From NCBI GenBank assembly GCA_036337945.1, contig JAYZDF010000029.1, forward strand, positions 19,040 to 83,039: a DNA stretch of 64,000 nucleotides, written 5' to 3'. The position numbers and the translations under genes were made by a program. This stretch comes from Myxococcota bacterium. Its GTDB lineage: Bacteria > Myxococcota > Kuafuiibacteriia > Kuafuiibacteriales > Kuafuiibacteriaceae. How positions within the stretch are numbered: position 1 is the first letter of the stretch; each line of letters begins with the position of its first letter. Shown here one piece after another: positions 15,438 to 23,047 of this stretch. A model generated the notes under the pieces. That model had not been told where the DNA came from. It did no database searches and saw only the letters and a list, made by a program, of their open reading frames with translations.

Positions 15438-16253
15438 TTACCTATCGAGTACAAAAGTAACAGGCACAGGAATCCACATCCCTACAACCGCACCGTCTTG
15501 TATAGCGGGCCTAAATCGCCAGTTTTTCTTCGCGTGCCGGACGGCGCTTTCGTCGCAGCCGTACCCAATCCCCTTGAGGATCTTCACTTTTTCAACGCGT
15601 CCGCTGGCCCCCACGTAAACTCGCAGCATCACACGCCCTTCGATATCGTTTTTGCGGGCCTCTTCCGGATACGGGGGCACACGATCGAATTCGGACGTTA
15701 TGAACTCTGGCGGGCTGTCTTCAAGATCGCCTCTCCCGGGCCCTTTTCCATTACCCGATGCAGGAGCGACTCTCTCCGTCGTTTTACTCCCCGGCGCCAA
15801 AGTATCGTCGGTTGGATCAGCGAACATATTTCCGCCACCGTCAATCGCTCTCGCGGCCACGCCACCCCCCATGACGGTTGAGGACATGTCGACCGAAAAG
15901 CCCATCGGTGGAGGTTGTGGCTTTGGCGGTGGAGGCTCATTACTAGGCGCCGGCTCTGCTTTTGGTTGTGCCTTGTTTTTCCTGACTGGCACACGTGGTT
16001 TTTTCTTTTTGACTTGAGCCGTCTTTACCTTGGGTTTGGGTTTGGGTTTTGGCTTAGGAGGCTCAGCAGGTTTTGGAGGGTCCGGTGCCTTCTTGACTAC
16101 TGGTTTTGGAGGCTTGGGTTTCGTGTTCACAATTTTCATGCGAACCTTCTTTGGACGAGGTACTTTTTCGCGTGCCTCAATATCATTGGCCATAAGCAAG
16201 ATAACGCCATGCAGAAGGACACTCGCGAGTGTTGCAATGCCTATAGACTTCAA
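15438..16253 (-). CDS. tonB: energy transducer TonB
   Basis: N-terminal TM helix, a proline/lysine-rich spacer (PKPPKPVVKKAPDPPKPAEPPKPKPKPKPK) and a C-terminal TonB domain (PPYPEEARKNDIEGRVMLRVYVGASGRVEKVKILKGIGYGCDESAVRHAKKNWRFRPA). Confidence 0.8.
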   Translation of the reverse strand: MKSIGIATLASVLLHGVILLMANDIEAREKVPRPKKVRMKIVNTKPKPPKPVVKKAPDPPKPAEPPKPKPKPKPKVKTAQVKKKKPRVPVRKNKAQPKAEPAPSNEPPPPKPQPPPMGFSVDMSSTVMGGGVAARAIDGGGNMFADPTDDTLAPGSKTTERVAPASGNGKGPGRGDLEDSPPEFITSEFDRVPPYPEEARKNDIEGRVMLRVYVGASGRVEKVKILKGIGYGCDESAVRHAKKNWRFRPAIQDGAVVGMWIPVPVTFVLDR

Positions 16254-16255
16254 AC

Positions 16256-16714
16256 CTACTCCGCTTTCTCTGGGGTTGCTTCGTCGATTTCTTCTGACGC
16301 TGGATCACTAAAATCAGCTTGTGTATTTAACGCAAATTTCGTGATTCCTTCCGTCTTTATTAAGTCGATCAGACCCACAACACGTTCGTGTTTCACGGAG
16401 CCATCAGCTGCAATAATCGCTTCTAGGTCCTCGAGCGTATCTTTTTTCTCACGAATGAACTCTTTGAGAGCTGCTTCATCAACTTTCTTGTTGTTCAAAT
16501 AGATATCGCCTTGTTTCGTAATCACCAAGGCAAGTTGTGATTGGGCAGTCTCTTCCGCAGAAGCCGCCCTGGGTAGGTCAACCTTGATCGCTGGCGTGAC
16601 AATGTAGCTTGCCGTCATCATAAAGATGATCAGCAGAACCAGAACAATATCTACAAGCGGCGTGATGTTGATGCCGGTGATCGCATCTTCATCGTCGTCT
16701 TGAACCCCAGCCAT
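16256..16714 (-). CDS. exbD: biopolymer transport protein ExbD/TolR
   Basis: ExbD/TolR signature (INITPLVDIVLVLLIIFMMT) on a single TM helix. It sits between exbB and tonB. Confidence 0.85.
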   Translation of the reverse strand: MAGVQDDDEDAITGINITPLVDIVLVLLIIFMMTASYIVTPAIKVDLPRAASAEETAQSQLALVITKQGDIYLNNKKVDEAALKEFIREKKDTLEDLEAIIAADGSVKHERVVGLIDLIKTEGITKFALNTQADFSDPASEEIDEATPEKAE

Positions 16715-16716
16715 TT

Positions 16717-17364
16717 CTAGTCGCCTCGCTTACACAGCGTATCCAGTCGTGCTGTAAGTGTGCGCTGAAGTCCGTCAGTACTCGAGATGAAGCCTTTGAC
16801 CTGCGCTTTGAAAAAATTGAATGCAACGACAGCAGGTAAAGCCACGGCCAACCCAACGGCCGTAGCAACCAGGGCCTCGGAAATGCCAGCCATTACCGCA
16901 GAGGCGCCGCCAGCCGCTTGCGATGGGTCAGACAAAGATAGATCTTGGAATGCCTTGATAATACCAAGAACAGTTCCAAGAAGTCCGATAAACGGCGCGT
17001 TATTACCAAGAGTTCCGAGAAATACCAGCCGGGACTCATACCTCGCTTTTTGCCGACCCAGTTCTGCTGACATCATTTCGCGAACGGCGTCAGGGCCCAA
17101 AGAAAGATGTTTGAGGCCAGTCGCAACCACTTGCGTCTCCATTCGATCCTGTTCTGACAACCAGGATGTCGCGTCTTCTATATGCCCGTCATCTAGCCGT
17201 TGACCGAGTTCAGCACCAACTTCTCTAACTTCCAATTTACGAGAGAAATAGAAGTATAGCCGCTCAAGCATGATCGCAATTGACACGATACTCAGGATGA
17301 CGAGTAGCCATAAAACCCATTCCGCACCTAAGAGCGCGAAAGCATTCATCGAACGTTCAAGCAT
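16717..17364 (-). CDS. exbB: MotA/TolQ/ExbB proton channel protein
   Basis: Three TM helices and the conserved C-terminal region (GLLGTVLGIIKAF...AGISEALVATAVGLAVALPAVVAFNFF). Confidence 0.85.
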   Translation of the reverse strand: MLERSMNAFALLGAEWVLWLLVILSIVSIAIMLERLYFYFSRKLEVREVGAELGQRLDDGHIEDATSWLSEQDRMETQVVATGLKHLSLGPDAVREMMSAELGRQKARYESRLVFLGTLGNNAPFIGLLGTVLGIIKAFQDLSLSDPSQAAGGASAVMAGISEALVATAVGLAVALPAVVAFNFFKAQVKGFISSTDGLQRTLTARLDTLCKRGD

Positions 17365-17462
17365 GGTTGGATACTCGCACCGACTGCAGCAAATACGTCA
17401 AGGCCGACTTGGTAATAATTGCAGGTATTTTCGAGTGACTCTGTAACCCGAGGTGTGTGGGT

Positions 17463-17723
17463 TTACGCGGCGTCTTCGGACGGACGCTTGTTGGGGTTGA
17501 TGGGAATGATGACGACACTCTCTTGTTCCTCAGGTTCTTCATACCGAGACTCTTCGTCATACGACGACGGAATAGGCTCCCGATAGACGGGAATCTCAAG
17601 ATGTATACGAGGCCGTGATGATTCTCGCTCGCGTTGCTCTTCCTCGCGCCTAATTGCATCTATTATGTAAGCATCTAGCATCTTTTCGTCCTCTACTTCG
17701 GCAAAACACCTAATAAGCACCAC
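17463..17723 (-). CDS. small acidic hypothetical protein
   Basis: An 86 aa ORF rich in Glu/Arg/Pro with no recognisable domain. It lies upstream of exbB on the same strand. An alternative-frame ORF (17357-17659) overlaps it and is less likely to be real. Confidence 0.3.
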   Translation of the reverse strand: MVLIRCFAEVEDEKMLDAYIIDAIRREEEQRERESSRPRIHLEIPVYREPIPSSYDEESRYEEPEEQESVVIIPINPNKRPSEDAA

Positions 17724-18096
17724 GGAAATTCGTTATGTCCTATATCGGTCCGCTTTCGTTTTTTGGTGACTCTTTTTCATCTCTCACTCAAAAAACGTCC
17801 CATTGACCCAATAAATTCCACCCGTCGGAGTGCTGTGACCAACTTCACATCAAGAGCGAAAAGTTCGCCCTCTATATTACTAGTCGGCCGTAGCCACGAA
17901 ACTGTGACCTAAAATCGGTAAAGGCACCAATTTTTGTCCGTCAAACAAATTTCTCGCCGGTTTACCCTTTTCGGGACGAGCGAGACATAGAGTGCCCTGA
18001 AATTTTCAATCATATGTCTCAACATGCGGTTTTTTTTGATTTTCTTTGGGTTAGCCCATAGCGAAGGAACAAAAATCGAGGTACGAGAACATCAAT
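17724..18096. promoter_or_regulatory. divergent intergenic region of about 370 nt upstream of the BMC operon
   Basis: A long AT-richer non-coding gap separates the minus-strand small ORF/exbB-exbD-tonB cluster from the plus-strand BMC operon. A ribosome-binding-site-like GAGG precedes the 18097 ATG. No specific operator was recognised. Confidence 0.3.
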
Positions 18097-18723
18097 ATGT
18101 CCCAAGGTGTGAAGCTCAGAGCCTACCAATTTCTCGATAGCCTGCAACCACAACTCACGTCGCATATTTGCACAACTTGCCGTGGGTATTTTCCGGTTCC
18201 AGGAATGGCGTCCCTATTCGTAGAGATCGCGCCGGGAATGGCCATCCATCGCCTGATCGACCGTGCCCTCAAAGCCACGGACGTTCAGCCTGCTACCTTG
18301 ATCGTGGAACGAGCGTTTGGGATGTTGGAGATTCATCACAACGATAAGGGCCAGGTCTTAGCTGCGGGCGCGGCAATCCTTGACCAACTGGGGGTATCCG
18401 AGACAGACCGCGTGAAGCCGCGCGTTGTATCGAATACCATTATTCGCTCTATCGAGCCTTACCATGCCATGATTGTTGATAAAATTCGTTTTGGTTCGAT
18501 GATCAGCCCGGGTGAATCGTTGTTAGTGATGGAGACACAACCCGCAGCATACGTTGCCTTCGCAGCGAACGAAGCTGAGAAAGCCGCGAATGTTACCCTC
18601 GTCGACGTAACACCATATGGTGCGTTCGGGCGACTTTACCTAGCTGGAGACGAAGCAGAAATCGACTCCGCTGCACAAGCCGCAGAAGCTGCCATTGCAA
18701 GCATCAGCGGAATAGAACAATAA
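18097..18723 (+). CDS. bacterial microcompartment shell protein, tandem-domain BMC-T, with ~35-aa N-terminal extension
   Basis: This 208 aa protein has two BMC-like segments ([25 protein letters not shown]...[11 protein letters not shown] and [31 protein letters not shown]...[26 protein letters not shown]). Both resemble BMC domain cores: an alpha/beta fold with a D/E-A-x-x-K-A helix. The subtype (permuted PduB/EutL-like versus PduT-like) cannot be decided by eye. Confidence 0.6.
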
Positions 18724-18759
18724 CCCAAATTTAAACTGTAACGATAAGAAGGAAGAACG

Positions 18760-19062
18760 ATGTCGGAAGCACTCGGAATGATCGAAACAAAAGGTTTCGT
18801 AGGAATGGTTGAAGCCTCAGATGCCATGGTTAAAGCAGCCAAGGTCGAACTCGTAGGTTATGAGAAGATTGGTGGAGGTTTCGTAACCTCAATCGTACGT
18901 GGCGATGTTGCAGCGGTGAAAGCAGCCGTAGAGGCAGGCGCGCGAGGCGCTGAACGCGTTGGCGAATTAGTGAGTGTTCATGTCATTCCACGCCCACACG
19001 CAAATATCGATGCCGCATTGCCGCTAGGTCGAGCACCTGCCGCATCAGGAAAAGGCAAGTAG
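18760..19062 (+). CDS. bacterial microcompartment hexamer shell protein BMC-H (PduA/EutM/CcmK family)
   Basis: It aligns nearly end-to-end by eye with PduA: [59 protein letters not shown]...VHVIPRPH. Confidence 0.9.
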
Positions 19063-19065
19063 AAC

Positions 19066-19359
19066 GTGCTCCTTGGCAAGGTCATTGGGACCGTCGTTGC
19101 CAGCAAGAAAGAACCTGAAATCGAAGGGCTAAAACTGCTCGTAGTGAAAGGTTCAGAGCTGGACGGACAAGCCAGCGGTCCAATTGTTGTTGCGGTAGAT
19201 GCCGTTGGTGCAGGCGTAGGCGAACTCGTTTTGTACGCAGCGGGCTCTTCGGCGCGTCAGACAATTCAAACCAAAGACAAGCCCGTGGACCATGTCGTCA
19301 TGGCGATTGTCGACCAAGTCGAGGTCGAAGGTTCACTGCTGTATAACAAAGATAACTAA
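19066..19359 (+). CDS. bacterial microcompartment vertex pentamer BMC-P (EutN/PduN/CcmL family)
   Basis: A 97 aa protein with the EutN-like pattern ([12 protein letters not shown]...LKLLVV.....[31 protein letters not shown]). Confidence 0.9.
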
Positions 19360-19378
19360 TCAAAGCGGGTCCCACTAA

Positions 19379-20842
19379 ATGGTTCAGATAGATGACGCAA
19401 AAATTGAAGAGATCGTGGGTAGGGTCGTCGATCGACTTGTAGGAAGTACTCCACCTTCTTCGTCGTCGGAGCCTTACTGTGCACCGGCTCCCCCAAAATA
19501 TGATCCAGGACCTGCTATTCATACCTCGGGTCTATCCGGTGTTTTCGGTGATCTTGACTCTGCGGTTGCTGCCGCTCACCGGGCGCACGCCGCCCTCGAA
19601 GCCTCTAGCTTAGAGCTACGGTTTAAAATCATCGAGGCTTTCCGGGATTGCGGTCGTCGAGAGGTCGCTAACCTCGCCCGAATGGCGGTTGAAGAGACCG
19701 GTCTTGGAAGATACGACGACAAGATAAATAAGAATCTGCTCGTTATTAATAAGACACCCGGGCCAGAGATTCTAAAGCCTGTTGCCGTATCCGGCGACAA
19801 CGGCCTCATGCTTACTGAACGTGCTGCATATGGCGTTATTGGCGCTATCACGCCGACGACCAACCCTACCGAGACGATCATTTGCAACGGCATTGGTATG
19901 TTATCGGGTGGTAATGCGGTGGTCTTCAACGTTCACCCAGGCGCGAAAAACGTTTGTAACTACCTCGTCGACAAGATCAACAAAGCAAGTGTTGCTGCTG
20001 GCGGGCCTGACAATCTAATTTGTAGCATTGGAGAGCCAACTATTCAGTCAGCGCAAGCCCTCATGACGCACGCAGGTATCCGACTATTGGTGGTTACTGG
20101 CGGACCTGGAGTCGTGAAAGCCGCCATGAAGTCAGGCAAACGAACTATTGCCGGAGGACCTGGCAATCCGCCCGTTGTAGTGGACGAGACGGCTGATATT
20201 CTTCGAGCAGCAAAAGGTATTGTCTCGGGCGGTAGCCTCGACAACTGCATTGTCTGTACGGCAGAAAAAGAGATTTTGGCCGTTGCTGAGATTGCTGACC
20301 TCCTAAAAAGGCAGATTTGTGAAAATGGTGGCTACGAAGTCAAAGGTCCGAACATCAGCAAGCTGCAGCGACTGGTTGTCGCTGAGGATGGCCTCCACCC
20401 GAACAAAGAATGGGTGGGTAAGGACGCCTCGAAGATTCTATCGGCGATCGGCATTACGCCGCCTAGTGGTGTGAGAACCATAATCGTAGAGGGCGATGAA
20501 CAAAGTCCCTTCGTGCAAGGAGAGTTACTCATGCCTGTGCTGGGCTTTGTTCGTGTCCCCAGTGCAGAAGAAGGCATAGCTATGGCCAAACGCGTCGAAC
20601 ATGGCTTTGGACATACTGCCGCGATGTACTCAACCAACATCAATAATCTTCACGCAATGGCTCGTTCCATCAATACCTCGATTTTCACAAAGAACGCGCC
20701 AACTTATGCCGGTCTTGGACTTGGAGGCGAAGGCTATACCTCCTTTACGATCGCCTCTCCGACCGGTGAAGGCCTCACTAATCCAATCCATTTCACACGC
20801 GAAAGACGATGCACACTAGTCGACTCATTCCGTATCATTTAG
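19379..20842 (+). CDS. CoA-acylating aldehyde dehydrogenase (PduP/EutE-like) with N-terminal encapsulation peptide
   Basis: ALDH fold with the catalytic-Cys motif SLDNCIVCTAEKE (compare FDNNLPCIAEKE in PduP) and the glycine-rich NAD site (GGPGNPPVVVDETADI). The N-terminus has a short amphipathic helix (DDAKIEEIVGRVVDRLVG), then a Ser/Pro-rich linker (STPPSSSSEPYCAPAPPKYDPGP), as in BMC encapsulation peptides. Confidence 0.9.
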   Translation: MVQIDDAKIEEIVGRVVDRLVGSTPPSSSSEPYCAPAPPKYDPGPAIHTSGLSGVFGDLDSAVAAAHRAHAALEASSLELRFKIIEAFRDCGRREVANLARMAVEETGLGRYDDKINKNLLVINKTPGPEILKPVAVSGDNGLMLTERAAYGVIGAITPTTNPTETIICNGIGMLSGGNAVVFNVHPGAKNVCNYLVDKINKASVAAGGPDNLICSIGEPTIQSAQALMTHAGIRLLVVTGGPGVVKAAMKSGKRTIAGGPGNPPVVVDETADILRAAKGIVSGGSLDNCIVCTAEKEILAVAEIADLLKRQICENGGYEVKGPNISKLQRLVVAEDGLHPNKEWVGKDASKILSAIGITPPSGVRTIIVEGDEQSPFVQGELLMPVLGFVRVPSAEEGIAMAKRVEHGFGHTAAMYSTNINNLHAMARSINTSIFTKNAPTYAGLGLGGEGYTSFTIASPTGEGLTNPIHFTRERRCTLVDSFRII

Positions 20843-21513
20843 CCTTCACCCTCCTCGTTTTTTCTGGTGTTGCCTGCAGCAGTGACCGATACGTCGGCTC
20901 CCTGGGCAAGTCAGGTATGTACGCAAACCGTGGTTATGGCGTTGTTATACAACTCAACGATCGTGACCTACTGAGTCGGTGGGAATATATCGACCCGCAC
21001 AAGATCGACATCTACAAGGAATCCGTTCGCCCTAGCCTCACCCAAGAAACGATAGATCTAAATGGTGATGGCACTCTTCATCACGACGAAGTTGTCGTGC
21101 AGTGGAAACCAAACTTCAGACTCGTTCATAAAGATGTCGCAACTTCTCGCATTGATCTTGGGGTAGATATTCTCGGGGGGCGAAATAAAGCTGCAGATTT
21201 TGGTGCCTATGTTCGAGCTACCGTGAAGAATGAATTTGGTGTCGAAACCAGCAAAGGAGATTGGAAGGCTTTACGGCTGGGCCCGGACTTTAGGGCGTAC
21301 TCAACCCGGCTCAAAGAAGATGGCCTATTACTCGCAGCCATCGATCAAGGTAACTTTTCTGCGGAAGAAGGCGCTGTGCGCCGACAAATTGTATGGGCTC
21401 GGCTGAAGTCATTAGAACTTACAGAGCAAGAAGAAAAGGATTTTGGATCATTTTTGCGCTCGCTGCTCCTGAATTCTAAGGCGGGAAGGCAAACAACCTG
21501 GGAGAAATATTGA
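20809..21513 (+). CDS. hypothetical protein encoded inside the BMC operon (possible signal peptide; EF-hand-like DxNxDG loop)
   Basis: A 234 aa protein with no family recognised. The N-terminus (MHTSRLIPYHLAFTLLVFSGVAC) looks like a signal or lipoprotein peptide. An alternative start at Met37 (20917) would remove it. It has a DLNGDGTL motif. Its start overlaps the AldDH stop by 34 nt. Its stop overlaps the downstream BMC-T start (ATGA). Confidence 0.35.
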   Translation: MHTSRLIPYHLAFTLLVFSGVACSSDRYVGSLGKSGMYANRGYGVVIQLNDRDLLSRWEYIDPHKIDIYKESVRPSLTQETIDLNGDGTLHHDEVVVQWKPNFRLVHKDVATSRIDLGVDILGGRNKAADFGAYVRATVKNEFGVETSKGDWKALRLGPDFRAYSTRLKEDGLLLAAIDQGNFSAEEGAVRRQIVWARLKSLELTEQEEKDFGSFLRSLLLNSKAGRQTTWEKY

Positions 21514-22121
21514 TTCAGTCTACGCCACTAATGGTCGACGGTGATGCCATCGCCGTTTTTGAAATAGCGTCAATTGCCCGTGGCGTTGTTGTATTGGATC
21601 AAATGGCAAAGCGTGCCTTCACTGAAATCATATCGTCTAAAACCGTCTCCCCTGGCAAATATCTCATTATTTTGACCGGGTCTGTTGCGGAAATAGAGGA
21701 AGCAAGTTTTGCCGCGCTTGAATCGATGCAAGATGATCACATCGACCATATTATCCTACGAGACCCTCACCCTCTTTTGCGAACAACCTTCGCAAATAAA
21801 CTCGAACCCAACTTCCGAGAGTCTGTTTCGATATGCGAATTTTTTACACTGAGTAGCACGATTCACGCGCTCGACGTAATTCTGAAGAGCTCCGGCGTTG
21901 AAGTTATTGAGTTACGTCTGGGCGCAGGGCTAGATGGTAAAGGAATCTTTACCGTAACAGGCTCTTTGGATACGATTGAAGCCGCATGTGACTTAGTAGA
22001 AAGTAATATTGACCATACGAAGATTCATCGCATTGAGAAGATTGCCCAAATCCACGAAGACCTGCCCAAGCATTTACTTGGCGCCGAGCTTCCCGCTTCG
22101 CGCGGCACACCGTCTAAATAG
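21510..22121 (+). CDS. bacterial microcompartment tandem-domain shell protein BMC-T, PduT-like, lacking the Fe-S ligand cysteine
   Basis: This 203 aa protein aligns by eye with PduT across both domains. Domain 1: AIAVFEIASIARGVVVLDQMAKRAFTEIISSKTVSPGKYLIILTGSVAEIEEA versus PduT [53 protein letters not shown]. Domain 2: HALDVILKSSGVEVIELRLGAGLDGKGIFTVTGSLDTIEAA. PduT Cys38 corresponds to Ser47 here (TCC at 21648-21650). Confidence 0.8.
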   Translation: MIQSTPLMVDGDAIAVFEIASIARGVVVLDQMAKRAFTEIISSKTVSPGKYLIILTGSVAEIEEASFAALESMQDDHIDHIILRDPHPLLRTTFANKLEPNFRESVSICEFFTLSSTIHALDVILKSSGVEVIELRLGAGLDGKGIFTVTGSLDTIEAACDLVESNIDHTKIHRIEKIAQIHEDLPKHLLGAELPASRGTPSK

Positions 22122-22323
22122 CGGAAACGGTTTTTCCGTGCACAAAAACTAAAAATGCCATCGATGGGCGTCGACTTCCTTCTCGCATCGCAAAGTGAAT
22201 AGCATCTAGACTCCAACCCAACGCGGCCATCTCATTGAGTTTCTCCTCAATGGTATCATCCGTTACGGTAGAGAGCTCGATAACCTTATAAGATGGATTG
22301 TCTTTCGTATCAGTCGTTGTCAC
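22114..22323 (-). CDS. DUF4177-like small protein
   Basis: A 69 aa protein with the pattern YKVIELS....D..EEKLNEMAALGWSL typical of DUF4177. It is the last gene of the minus-strand hem operon. Its 3' end overlaps the BMC-T 3' end by 8 nt in convergent orientation. Confidence 0.45.
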   Translation of the reverse strand: MTTTDTKDNPSYKVIELSTVTDDTIEEKLNEMAALGWSLDAIHFAMREGSRRPSMAFLVFVHGKTVSAI

Positions 22324-23047
22324 AGCTGCCCCCTACTTTATCGAGAAGAGCTTCAATCAGCAATTCAAGCTCTGGATTGGCTGGACAGACCAGGGAATTG
22401 AGCCCCAGTTTTTCGGCATGCTCTCTCGTATTTTGACCGATAACTCCTACAGTTCGATAGCTCAAATATCCAAGGGCCGTGTCATGAGAACGGAAGAAAG
22501 AGTCCAATGTTCGCCCAGAAAAAAACAGCACATCCGTTATCGCCGGATCTGGCAGAGCGTCATGTCTGCACATCTCAATGGAGTAGATGGCTAATGTACT
22601 GACCGTTACTCCTTGCTCTATGAGTGGCGACACAAAAGAAGCCTTCGCCTGTTTTGCTTGAGGGCAAAACACTCGCAATTCCTTCATGTCTGCCTCAGCC
22701 CTAGAGAACCAATCAAGGATGCCTTCTCCATCAAACCGGTCCGGCACAAAGATGTCTCGCTCTTGCAACCATTGCCGTGCGGCGGCAGCCGTACGTCCGC
22801 CCACTGCGAGTATTTTCACGTGTTGAGGAGGTACCACATGCTCAGTCTTCATATAGCGAACCGTGTTCGCAGAAGTGAGCACTAAATAATCAAAATCTTC
22901 CCAAGAAGGCCATGTAACGGAAATCCGACGTGTCTGTATGTACGGAATGACTTCAACTTCGGCTCCGTGTGCTTCCAAAAGTCGTGTGACTGCTATGGAC
23001 TGTTCTCTTTGTCGAGTAACAAGAACTTTTCTGCCTACTAAACTCAT
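22310..23047 (-). CDS. hemD: uroporphyrinogen-III synthase
   Basis: A 245 aa protein with the HemD-like two-lobe pattern (VLVTRQREQS..LLEAHGAEV..PYI; VLFFSGRTLDSF). It lies immediately downstream of hemC in the operon. Confidence 0.7.
   Translation of the reverse strand: MSLVGRKVLVTRQREQSIAVTRLLEAHGAEVEVIPYIQTRRISVTWPSWEDFDYLVLTSANTVRYMKTEHVVPPQHVKILAVGGRTAAAARQWLQERDIFVPDRFDGEGILDWFSRAEADMKELRVFCPQAKQAKASFVSPLIEQGVTVSTLAIYSIEMCRHDALPDPAITDVLFFSGRTLDSFFRSHDTALGYLSYRTVGVIGQNTREHAEKLGLNSLVCPANPELELLIEALLDKVGGSCDND

Follow-up and report, generated by a model that had tools for sequence, protein, structure and literature searches.

The microcompartment (BMC) operon described here lies on the plus strand of the window, the whole 64-kb stretch of DNA that was analysed, and starts with a CsoS1D/CcmP-like BMC-Tdp shell gene (18097..18723; Pfam BMC and NCBIfam CcmP-like matches), followed by a BMC-H shell gene (18760..19062; PF00936, E 4.7e-30), a BMC-P (EutN/CcmL) vertex gene (19066..19359; PF03319, E 1e-27), the gene of an acylating aldehyde dehydrogenase, AldDH (19379..20842; NF011927, E 2.6e-188), and, as its last gene, a PduT-like BMC-Ts (21510..22121; PF00936 matched twice, together with a TIGR02526-like match). 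Between AldDH and this last shell gene the ORF listing holds, just as an earlier note on this DNA had described, a complete ORF on the plus strand with an ATG start (20809..21513, stop included), which encodes a predicted lipoprotein precursor of 234 aa that we refer to as X.

The operon has the genes of an HO-type (Haliangium ochraceum) locus in the HO order (BMC-Tdp, a single BMC-H, BMC-P, AldDH carrying an N-terminal peptide, BMC-Ts), and it has the Myxococcota lineage in common with type I HO loci. Those loci, including that of H. ochraceum, are described as consisting of shell proteins and AldDH only, and the function of the HO compartment has been called enigmatic (Sutter et al. 2021, PMC8217296). 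In contrast, the operons of X and of nine other distinct members of its family carry an extra gene, for a predicted lipoprotein, between AldDH and BMC-Ts; an HO subclade thus carries a gene that the published catalogue text does not mention. Our literature search returned no paper that connects a lipoprotein with a BMC locus of myxobacteria, and nothing for Hoch_5813. The HO compartment of Haliangium-like myxobacteria serves as the chief model in work on the structure and engineering of shells, and X, as the only non-shell, non-AldDH gene here and a conserved one, is a possible clue to HO function. No satellite BMC genes were found in the 64-kb window by tblastn with the shell proteins and AldDH, and the same window contains no satellite BMC-P, aldolase or second BMC-Tdp.

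X is tightly packed in the operon. Its 5' end overlaps the 3' end of AldDH by 34 nt (20809..20842), where the stretch that encodes the conserved AldDH C-terminus RERRCTLVDSFRI[IV]* is read in another frame as the N-terminus of X, 'MHxxRxxPY', and the same 34-nt overlap is seen in L001, L005, L006, L011, L014 and the P0005 contig. At the other end, the X stop codon overlaps the BMC-Ts start by 4 nt (21510..21513); the earlier note had both overlap lengths right but read this junction as ATGA, while it is TTGA, with a TTG start at 21510. An NTGA overlap at this junction recurs in L001, L002, L007 and L014, and across loci X overlaps its upstream gene by 34 or 4 nt and its downstream gene usually by 4 nt. 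With such overlaps, translational coupling of X to the upstream AldDH and the downstream BMC-Ts is probable, as had been proposed, and X would be co-translated with them. We infer that expression of X in this genome comes from the HO-type BMC operon. A promoter and terminator consensus scan of 17300-22500 gave nothing above shuffled expectation and carries no information on internal promoters.

Two small conserved ORFs on the minus strand flank the operon: an acidic one of ~72 aa upstream ('MLDAYIID...EDAA', 17463..17681; alignment A6) and one of 69 aa downstream, beside hemD (22114..22323; alignment A7), the latter with a weak similarity to DUF4177 (Pfam E 0.004, below cut-off). Both border versions of the locus with BMC genes and X as well as versions with X only.

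Predicted signal peptide, fold and calcium loop of X

Residues 1-22 of X (20809..20874) form a predicted type II (lipoprotein) signal peptide, in which an n-region with Arg5 is followed by 17 uncharged residues with a mean hydrophobicity of 0.5-0.66; the hydrophobic moment of the signal region is below 0.25 and its charges number 0-1. The N-terminal motif MHTSRLIPYHLAFTLLVFSGVA|C is found in the sequence, and the lipobox S-G-V-A-C spans 20863..20877, with Cys23 at 20875-20877. X therefore has the elements that mark lipoproteins, namely a charged n-region, an uncharged h-region (~7-22 residues) and a lipobox Cys preceded by a small residue. These elements extend to the family: in almost every full-length member a K/R precedes a hydrophobic stretch, the h-region drifts in sequence and length while keeping its hydrophobicity, Cys23 is present in all 46 members covering the column, and the residue before it is always small (A in 20, G in 19, S in 7). 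A PROSITE PS51257-type core is present in X and in 34 of the 46 members in which our script located the Cys motif. From Cys23 onwards, the mature N-terminus CSSDRYVGSLGKSG (residues 23-36, 20875..20916), which lies 5' of Met37, is conserved, with R27, Y28 and G30 at 90% or more in the family. Further on, R41, W58, E186 and R191-R192-Q193 are conserved as well. The signal- or lipoprotein-like N-terminus that the earlier note had suspected is thus borne out as lipoprotein-type, and, judged by pattern, composition and conservation, X is a predicted lipoprotein that would be exported and lipidated.

The alternative start that had been considered, Met37 (20917), is rejected. Met37 is confined to the closest relatives of X and is not conserved in the family, and codons 23-36, compared with those of L001, show seven synonymous and no non-synonymous changes, that is, strong purifying selection on the segment upstream of Met37; for this reason we take the long start at 20809 to be the real one. 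The L001 gene call is truncated; the L001 DNA nevertheless encodes the full signal peptide.

Structure prediction, which the earlier note had recommended, gave a confident AF2 model (pLDDT 91.2, pTM 0.85), in which mature X is a Mog1/PsbP-like alpha-beta-alpha sandwich spanning residues ~37-221 (20917..21471), with a central antiparallel sheet and superposable on other members of this fold. The nearest solved structures are LpqN, CyanoP, MTC28 and DcrB, mostly extracytoplasmic proteins, at Foldseek TM-scores of only 0.35-0.5 and with an identity to any solved protein of 15% or less. The same fold is also found in cytosolic Mog1 and in the Eag chaperones SciW (6xrb) and PA0094 (1tu1), which are cytosolic and bind transmembrane helices, and therefore the fold alone is no proof of an envelope location for X.

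Among these structural relatives, LpqN, LpqT, MTC28 and Apa (PDB 6e5d, 4pws, 5zxa) are exported mycobacterial proteins, LpqN being lipid-anchored through an N-terminal Cys as predicted for X, and the group resembles X in having a single Mog1/PsbP-like domain of similar size and no enzymatic motif. LpqN serves MmpL transporters in the envelope, as an adaptor or by binding ligands. The identity of X to this group is ~11%, with no match to Pfam Lpp-LpqN at E<=1, and the group belongs to another phylum with another type of envelope; X, unlike these proteins, has an EF-hand-type loop, the conserved segment C-x-S-D-R-Y-V-G-S directly after the predicted lipid anchor, and its place inside a BMC operon. 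The PsbP, CyanoP and PNSL proteins (PDB 2xb3, 3jcu_P, 7wg5_f), extrinsic lumenal proteins of photosystem II and NDH, are extracytoplasmic, as X is predicted to be, and act as adaptors that dock onto a membrane complex; CyanoP is a lipoprotein, and PsbP modulates Ca2+/Cl- retention. X has no sequence similarity to this group, its host is non-photosynthetic, and for its putative metal site it has a linear Dx[DN]xDG hairpin loop, whereas PsbP has surface metal sites. DcrB (6e8a), of the DUF1795 family, is an inner-membrane lipoprotein of Gram-negative bacteria and in this respect like predicted X; X has no sequence match to DcrB/DUF1795 and keeps its lipobox and calcium loop.

The DxNxDG loop to which the earlier note had drawn attention as EF-hand- or calcium-binding-like is genuine and family-wide. 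It is an EF-hand-like Dx[DN]xDG...E loop of 12 residues, X 83-94 (21055..21090, plus strand; DLNGDGTLHHDE), reading D83-L-N85-G-D87-G88-T-L90-H-H-D-E94, with acidic or amide ligands at positions 1, 3 and 5, and with Gly, a hydrophobic residue and Glu at positions 6, 8 and 12, as in EF-hand loops. D83 and E94 are invariant (48/48 family members each), position 85 is D in 33 and N in 15, D87 is kept in 43/48 with N in the other 5, and G88 and L90 are found in 46/48 and 37/48. The family profile aligns to the EF loops of EhCaBP, polcalcins and calmodulin-like proteins. Compared with EF-hand domains, however, X has neither a helix-loop-helix nor paired hands: its loop is single and, in the model, sits in a beta-hairpin between strands 76-81 and 95-100, and the EF-hand_5 matches, obtained for 14 of 48 members, all stay below the Pfam gathering cut-off. 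The loop would thus be grouped with the 'other structural contexts' in which the motif occurs and not with EF-hand domains (Rigden et al. 2011, PMC3123361). Because loop position 9 is a His and strands instead of helices flank the loop, we go no further than to infer Ca2+ binding by X, the loop most likely holding one Ca2+ ion.

The X family and its chromosomal site

A profile search among 50%-identity cluster representatives returned 54 proteins at E<1e-10, of which ~50 are family members of matching length and the rest are short fragments or giant proteins whose matches cover the calcium loop alone; the size of the family is taken from the full HMMER scan. The named members are all from MAGs of uncultured Myxococcota or "Deltaproteobacteria". 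Calcium-loop matches also dominated the genome-collection scan with alignment A1, which has at least one true X locus among the matches listed, and the nine matches of a word-indexed protein search with a 52-sequence profile, while a metagenome scan with the narrower alignment A4 yielded only L004 (same place as L001) and the 1.3-kb L005. Given a pN/pS of 0.14 against the 90%-identical copy in L001 and a family of ~50 members, X is not a chance reading frame.

At the sequence level, the earlier description of X as a protein with no recognisable enzymatic motif or family holds, as the Pfam and NCBIfam scans of X were empty. When 48 family members were compared with Pfam at E<=1, weak EF-hand matches alone appeared, and the HMMs of PsbP, Lpp-LpqN, DcrB/DUF1795 and Mog1 matched none of the 48 even at this threshold. 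The BMC shell domains PF00936 and PF03319 did not match X, the fold of which is unrelated to that of BMC shell proteins. Remote-homology comparison of the family profile with PDB sequences, a check that had likewise been proposed, recovered EF-hand loops but no domain homologue. X, correctly called uncharacterised, is therefore a member of an unannotated family of ~50 sequence clusters, one that pairs a Mog1/PsbP-like fold with an EF-hand-type loop. The practical value of this is modest: the annotation is corrected (one truncated gene call) and the new family is fit for a Pfam-type entry.

Readable genomic contexts were available for 15 distinct family members. Ten are embedded in an HO-type operon in the order Tdp-H-P-AldDH-X-Ts, and five stand alone at the same chromosomal site, bordered by the same two small conserved ORFs and with no BMC gene in the 6-8 kb around X that these contexts cover. 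MAGs or contigs with stand-alone copies include GCA_964473255.1, Myxococcales bacterium LLY-WYZ-16_1, and the contigs of L018 and L019. This site reads FtsY-ZapA-...-[locus]-hemD-hemC-hemA, and the X family is its long-term resident. X persists there in relatives that lack BMC genes at this position, and its function would therefore not depend on the compartment. The earlier note had named clear homologues outside BMC loci with a known unrelated function as evidence that would overturn its proposal; homologues without BMC genes nearby do occur, in five of the 15 contexts, but none has a known function. In many of the loci with both BMC genes and X, an ExbB-ExbD-TonB cluster is transcribed divergently beside the operon; this cluster is absent at L007 and at the stand-alone X loci.

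Probable export to the envelope and relation to the compartment

We consider it likely that X is exported and resides in the envelope as a lipoprotein, that it probably binds calcium, that its gene is transcribed together with the BMC genes, and that it is neither cargo, scaffold nor a new encapsulation peptide. Following the standard lipoprotein route, the precursor would be translocated by the Sec machinery, Lgt would add diacylglycerol to Cys23, and signal peptidase II would cut between Ala22 and Cys23, with the new N-terminus then being acylated, to leave a mature protein of 212 residues that is tethered to a membrane and faces the periplasm. By the E. coli sorting rule, which may not hold in Myxococcota, the Ser at +2 would direct X preferentially to the outer membrane. 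In the envelope, the Ca2+ ion perhaps stabilises the fold or gates the binding of an envelope partner, for which X might serve as an adaptor. A periplasmic protein co-expressed with a cytosolic organelle would be mildly unusual, and is testable. We note that the strict nesting of X between AldDH and BMC-Ts, kept down to ~30% identity, counts against this reading and is hard to call accidental.

The same operon position and translational coupling could suggest that X is cargo or scaffold of the microcompartment, its hydrophobic N-terminus being a new encapsulation or shell-docking peptide, as the earlier note had entertained; that the fold recurs in SciW and PA0094, cytosolic Eag chaperones which bind hydrophobic helices, points the same way. 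The AldDH of this operon shows what such a peptide looks like: its N-terminus is an amphipathic encapsulation-peptide-like helix with a moment of ~0.5 and 6-8 charges, followed by a Pro/Ser linker. The N-terminus of X, in contrast, is uncharged, non-amphipathic and uniformly hydrophobic, it ends in a lipobox Cys that is conserved family-wide together with the small -1 residue, its h-region drifts freely in sequence and length in the manner of signal peptides, and what directly follows is a highly conserved segment where an encapsulation peptide (an ~18-residue amphipathic helix) would have a poorly conserved linker. Nor is the occurrence of X tied to shell genes, since 5 of 15 members have none within 6-8 kb, and an EF-hand loop with ligands of the millimolar type suits an extracytoplasmic setting. 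We therefore regard a second encapsulation or scaffold peptide as highly improbable. X, as a predicted membrane-anchored exported lipoprotein whose relatives keep it without compartment genes, is very unlikely to be a compartment component, and the view of it as the best candidate for a locus-specific novel component is not supported, given the resemblance of its fold to extracytoplasmic lipoproteins and secreted proteins and the existence of homologues outside BMC loci. Recognising that X is not a lumen component keeps it from being misfiled as new cargo or a novel encapsulation signal. We give even less credence to a role of X as a periplasmic lipoprotein that confers immunity to a secreted toxin, in the manner of Tsi3, TplEi and Tli4, which have the same fold: none of the 15 contexts has an effector, Rhs, VgrG or secretion gene next to X, and the site is a stable housekeeping neighbourhood (FtsY, ZapA, hemACD), not a variable island.

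Export would also be compatible with a true partnership between X and the HO microcompartment, in which X, on the envelope side, would act in a Ca2+-dependent way as a receptor or sensor of the substrate or as an adaptor for its uptake; staying in the operon would ensure that X and the compartment are produced together. We hold this to be rather unlikely, in view of the five distinct members that stand alone at the same site with no BMC gene within 6-8 kb, although X does lie between AldDH and BMC-Ts in ten distinct members, down to ~30% identity and with overlapping stop and start codons. The divergent ExbB-ExbD-TonB cluster adjoining the operon in many loci would also speak for a partnership, but neither L007 nor the stand-alone loci have it. 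Also in favour, shell genes and AldDH are all that the HO main locus otherwise offers for a function that has been called enigmatic (PMC8217296); against it, type I HO loci as published, H. ochraceum included, are credited with just these genes, and there Hoch_5812, 5814, 5815 and 5816 leave space for one gene, not two. Tentatively, X might be the envelope-side arm of the HO system in marine Myxococcota, a periplasmic receptor or sensor that depends on Ca2+ and captures or reports the substrate, and, as part of the same doubtful joint reading, it might be made in fixed proportion with shell and AldDH. If so, X would be the first extracytoplasmic component to be encoded among the shell genes of a BMC operon, and experiments on what the HO compartment does could start from it; the stand-alone copies would be remnants keeping a second role after compartment loss. 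In an NJ tree, four of the stand-alone members fall in one clade and P0042 elsewhere, with long branches.

The operon and the reading frame of X

X is encoded by an ORF (20809..21513, + strand; ATG start, 234 aa) nested in an operon for which the Pfam/NCBIfam scan returned, in order, a CsoS1D/CcmP-like BMC-T (18097-18723), a BMC-H (18760-19062), an EutN/CcmL-type BMC-P (19066-19359), an acylating aldehyde dehydrogenase, AldDH (19379-20842), and, following X, the PduT-like BMC-T designated BMC-Ts (21510-22121). The window sequence confirms the 34-nt overlap of X with the AldDH gene; the 4-nt overlap with the last shell gene also stands, although its sequence is TTGA, from a TTG start codon, and not ATGA as the earlier note had it. 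From these overlaps we infer that X and the BMC operon share a transcript in the window genome, and translational coupling to it is probable. The apparent TTG start of BMC-Ts (window 21510-21531), GTG in relatives, overlaps the X stop as NTGA, and an in-frame ATG seven codons downstream is a candidate alternative start.

The protein does have the described N-terminus, MHTSRLIPYHLAFTLLVFSGVA followed by Cys, and the loop DLNGDGTLHHDE at residues 83-94; neither Pfam nor NCBIfam yields a match to X. The alternative start at Met37, considered before, is rejected because codons 23-36, 5' of Met37, carry seven synonymous and no non-synonymous differences between X and the copy in the relative's locus L001, and because Met37 is restricted to the closest relatives of X; the long start at 20809 is the correct one. 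L001 itself (JGI contig Ga0163109_10000002, 7893-8597) encodes the full 234-aa precursor including the whole signal peptide, again with a 34-nt overlap with AldDH, and for the former reason the 198-aa database protein starting from Met37 (P0003) is a truncated gene call. The conserved start of many members, 'MHxxRxxPY', is an alternate frame of the conserved AldDH C-terminus RERRCTLVDSFRI[IV]* and no functional X motif.

Among 5.8 billion proteins, a word-indexed search recovered only seven relatives, one of them the identical protein at NCBI, 'MAG: hypothetical protein VYC39_04785 [Myxococcota bacterium]'. When 1.84 billion cluster representatives were scanned with the profile by full HMMER, 54 proteins passed E<1e-10. 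Some 50 of these belong to the family, with lengths of roughly 210-250 aa; the remainder are short fragments and three giant proteins aligned solely over the calcium loop, and the weaker giant-protein matches likewise cover this loop alone. All named members are 'hypothetical protein' entries of uncultured Myxococcota or 'Deltaproteobacteria' MAGs. This conservation, together with a pN/pS of 0.14 against the 90%-identical L001 copy, rules out a chance ORF: X is a real, conserved gene.

Signal peptide, fold and calcium loop

Of the 48 aligned sequences, 46 cover the column of Cys23, and every one of these has the Cys, preceded by Ala in 20, Gly in 19 and Ser in 7. A Lys/Arg n-region and a hydrophobic h-region, the latter variable in sequence and length, occur in nearly all full-length members, and most match the PROSITE PS51257 core. 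We read the N-terminus of X as a predicted lipoprotein signal peptide. The idea of a second kind of encapsulation peptide is not supported because the N-terminal segment of X is hydrophobic throughout (mean hydrophobicity 0.5-0.66, helical moment <0.25, 0-1 charged residues), whereas the AldDH of this operon begins with a typical amphipathic encapsulation peptide (moment ~0.5, 6-8 charges) that continues into a Pro/Ser linker. The AldDH helix, MVQIDDAKIEEIVGRVVDRLVG, with its Pro/Ser-rich linker (window 19379-19500), agrees with the N-terminal encapsulation peptide reported for all AldDHs of the Haliangium ochraceum (HO) type.

The AlphaFold2 model of X built on the 48-sequence alignment reached pLDDT 91.2 and pTM 0.85 (pLDDT 77.5 for the first model, from seven sequences). 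Its structure matches, with scores, are the M. tuberculosis lipoprotein LpqN (11.1), the uncharacterised Jonesia protein 3lyd (10.7), the cyanobacterial PsbP, CyanoP (10.6), the uncharacterised B. thetaiotaomicron protein BT_1490 (10.3), the Ran release factor Mog1 (10.1), the secreted M. tuberculosis antigen MTC28 (9.8), PA0094, a P. aeruginosa protein of unknown function (9.7), the secreted M. tuberculosis protein Apa (8.8), the immunity protein Tsi3 (8.4) and the inner-membrane lipoprotein DcrB (7.2). A further structure comparison gave a concordant result. Foldseek finds the same fold with probability up to 0.99 but TM-scores of only 0.35-0.5. Bacterial proteins of the Mog1/PsbP-like fold are mostly lipoproteins, secreted or periplasmic, and this extracytoplasmic bias fits the signal peptide of X. 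Since no member reaches the Pfam models of that fold, even at E<=1, the family is new at the sequence level; X stands for a novel and so far unannotated family among the exported Mog1/PsbP-fold lipoproteins, a known kind of protein, and is unusual in its calcium loop and in lying within a BMC shell operon.

Residues 83-94 follow the canonical 12-residue EF-hand pattern, with D83 and E94 in 48 of 48 sequences, position 3 divided between D (33) and N (15), D87 in 43, G88 in 46 and L90 in 37. Among solved structures, the family profile aligns to nothing but the EF-hand loops of proteins that bind calcium, and sub-threshold EF-hand_5 matches occur in 14 of the 48 members. The Dx[DN]xDG motif has been described in structural contexts other than the EF-hand (PMC3123361), and the loop of X belongs with these and not with the EF-hand domain proper, because the AlphaFold2 model places it between two beta-strands.

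Genomic contexts and possible roles

Genomic context was readable for 15 distinct family members. Ten are embedded as Tdp-H-P-AldDH-X-Ts, exactly as in the window: the window, L001, L002 (34% identity), the contig of the database protein P0005, L005, L006, L007, L011, L012/L013 and L014/L015. AldDH and X share 34 nt in six of these loci (seven with the window) and 4 nt in one, with a short gap in two; X and Ts overlap by 4-7 nt with one exception among loci with a readable junction. The other five (L003, L008-L010, L016/L017, L018 and L019) are stand-alone, with no BMC or AldDH genes within 6-8 kb. Both versions share a chromosomal site, flanked on one side by SMC/FtsY-ZapA-5-formyl-THF cyclo-ligase and on the other by hemD-hemC-hemA and a cytochrome c assembly gene, and one pair of small conserved ORFs (alignments A6 and A7) borders both. 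A neighbour-joining tree groups four stand-alone copies in one clade and puts the fifth elsewhere, on long branches. Whether BMC genes were lost or gained around it, X persists with no compartment genes next to it.

The window operon is of the HO type. The shell genes of the H. ochraceum locus are Hoch_5812, 5814, 5815 and 5816 (PMC8217296); because this numbering leaves room for one other gene, X is an extra gene of an HO subclade, without mention in the catalogue text. A tblastn search with the locus proteins found no second BMC-P, BMC-Tdp or aldolase gene in the whole window (1-64000), and satellite loci, as described for HO type I, must lie elsewhere in the genome.

We consider it likely that X is exported and is no component of the lumen. 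By the standard lipoprotein pathway, X would be translocated, lipidated at Cys23 and cleaved by signal peptidase II, leaving the mature protein anchored to a membrane on the periplasmic side; there, by analogy with LpqN, CyanoP and DcrB, the Mog1/PsbP-like domain might act as a binding or adaptor module, with one Ca2+ stabilising or regulating it. As a rival reading, X could be an envelope-side functional partner of the compartment, as its conserved nesting in the operon would suggest; we think this rather unlikely, however, given the stand-alone copies and its absence from the published HO type I description. The same copies, lacking adjacent BMC genes, together with the predicted signal peptide, make it very unlikely that X is the novel compartment component proposed in the earlier note, and a cargo or scaffold role, with a novel peptide for targeting, seems very improbable. 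An immunity lipoprotein seems very improbable as well, no effector gene being nearby in any of the 15 contexts. The result usefully corrects the reading in the earlier note and may be of minor interest to those who study BMCs.

Neighbours of the locus

Directly upstream and divergent lies a conserved small acidic protein of ~70 aa ('MLDAYIIDxIRxEE...PIVIP...EDAA'; window 17463-17681, - strand; L001 4548-4766; L008 7681-7965; L016 7657-7869), without a Pfam match and occurring in both BMC+X and X-only genomes; the mechanically called window ORF, at 86 aa, begins 14 codons ahead of the proper start. An ORF of 65-69 aa (window 22114-22323, - strand; L001 9198-9404; L016 8657-8854) separates the locus from hemD in every version, with a mean column identity of 59% over eight aligned loci and weak, below cut-off similarity to DUF4177 (E 0.004); in the window this ORF and the 3' end of BMC-Ts share 8 nt, on opposite strands. 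An ExbB-ExbD-TonB cluster (window 15438-17364, - strand) adjoins the operon in divergent orientation, as it does in most BMC-carrying relatives (L001, L002, L012, L014); the cluster is missing from L007 and from all stand-alone loci, with a tyrosyl-tRNA synthetase gene in its place. In several relatives an ECF-type sigma-70 gene and three small unannotated ORFs directly follow BMC-Ts (L006 5995-7916; L011 3247-5333; L014 9777-11474), a cassette that the window lacks.
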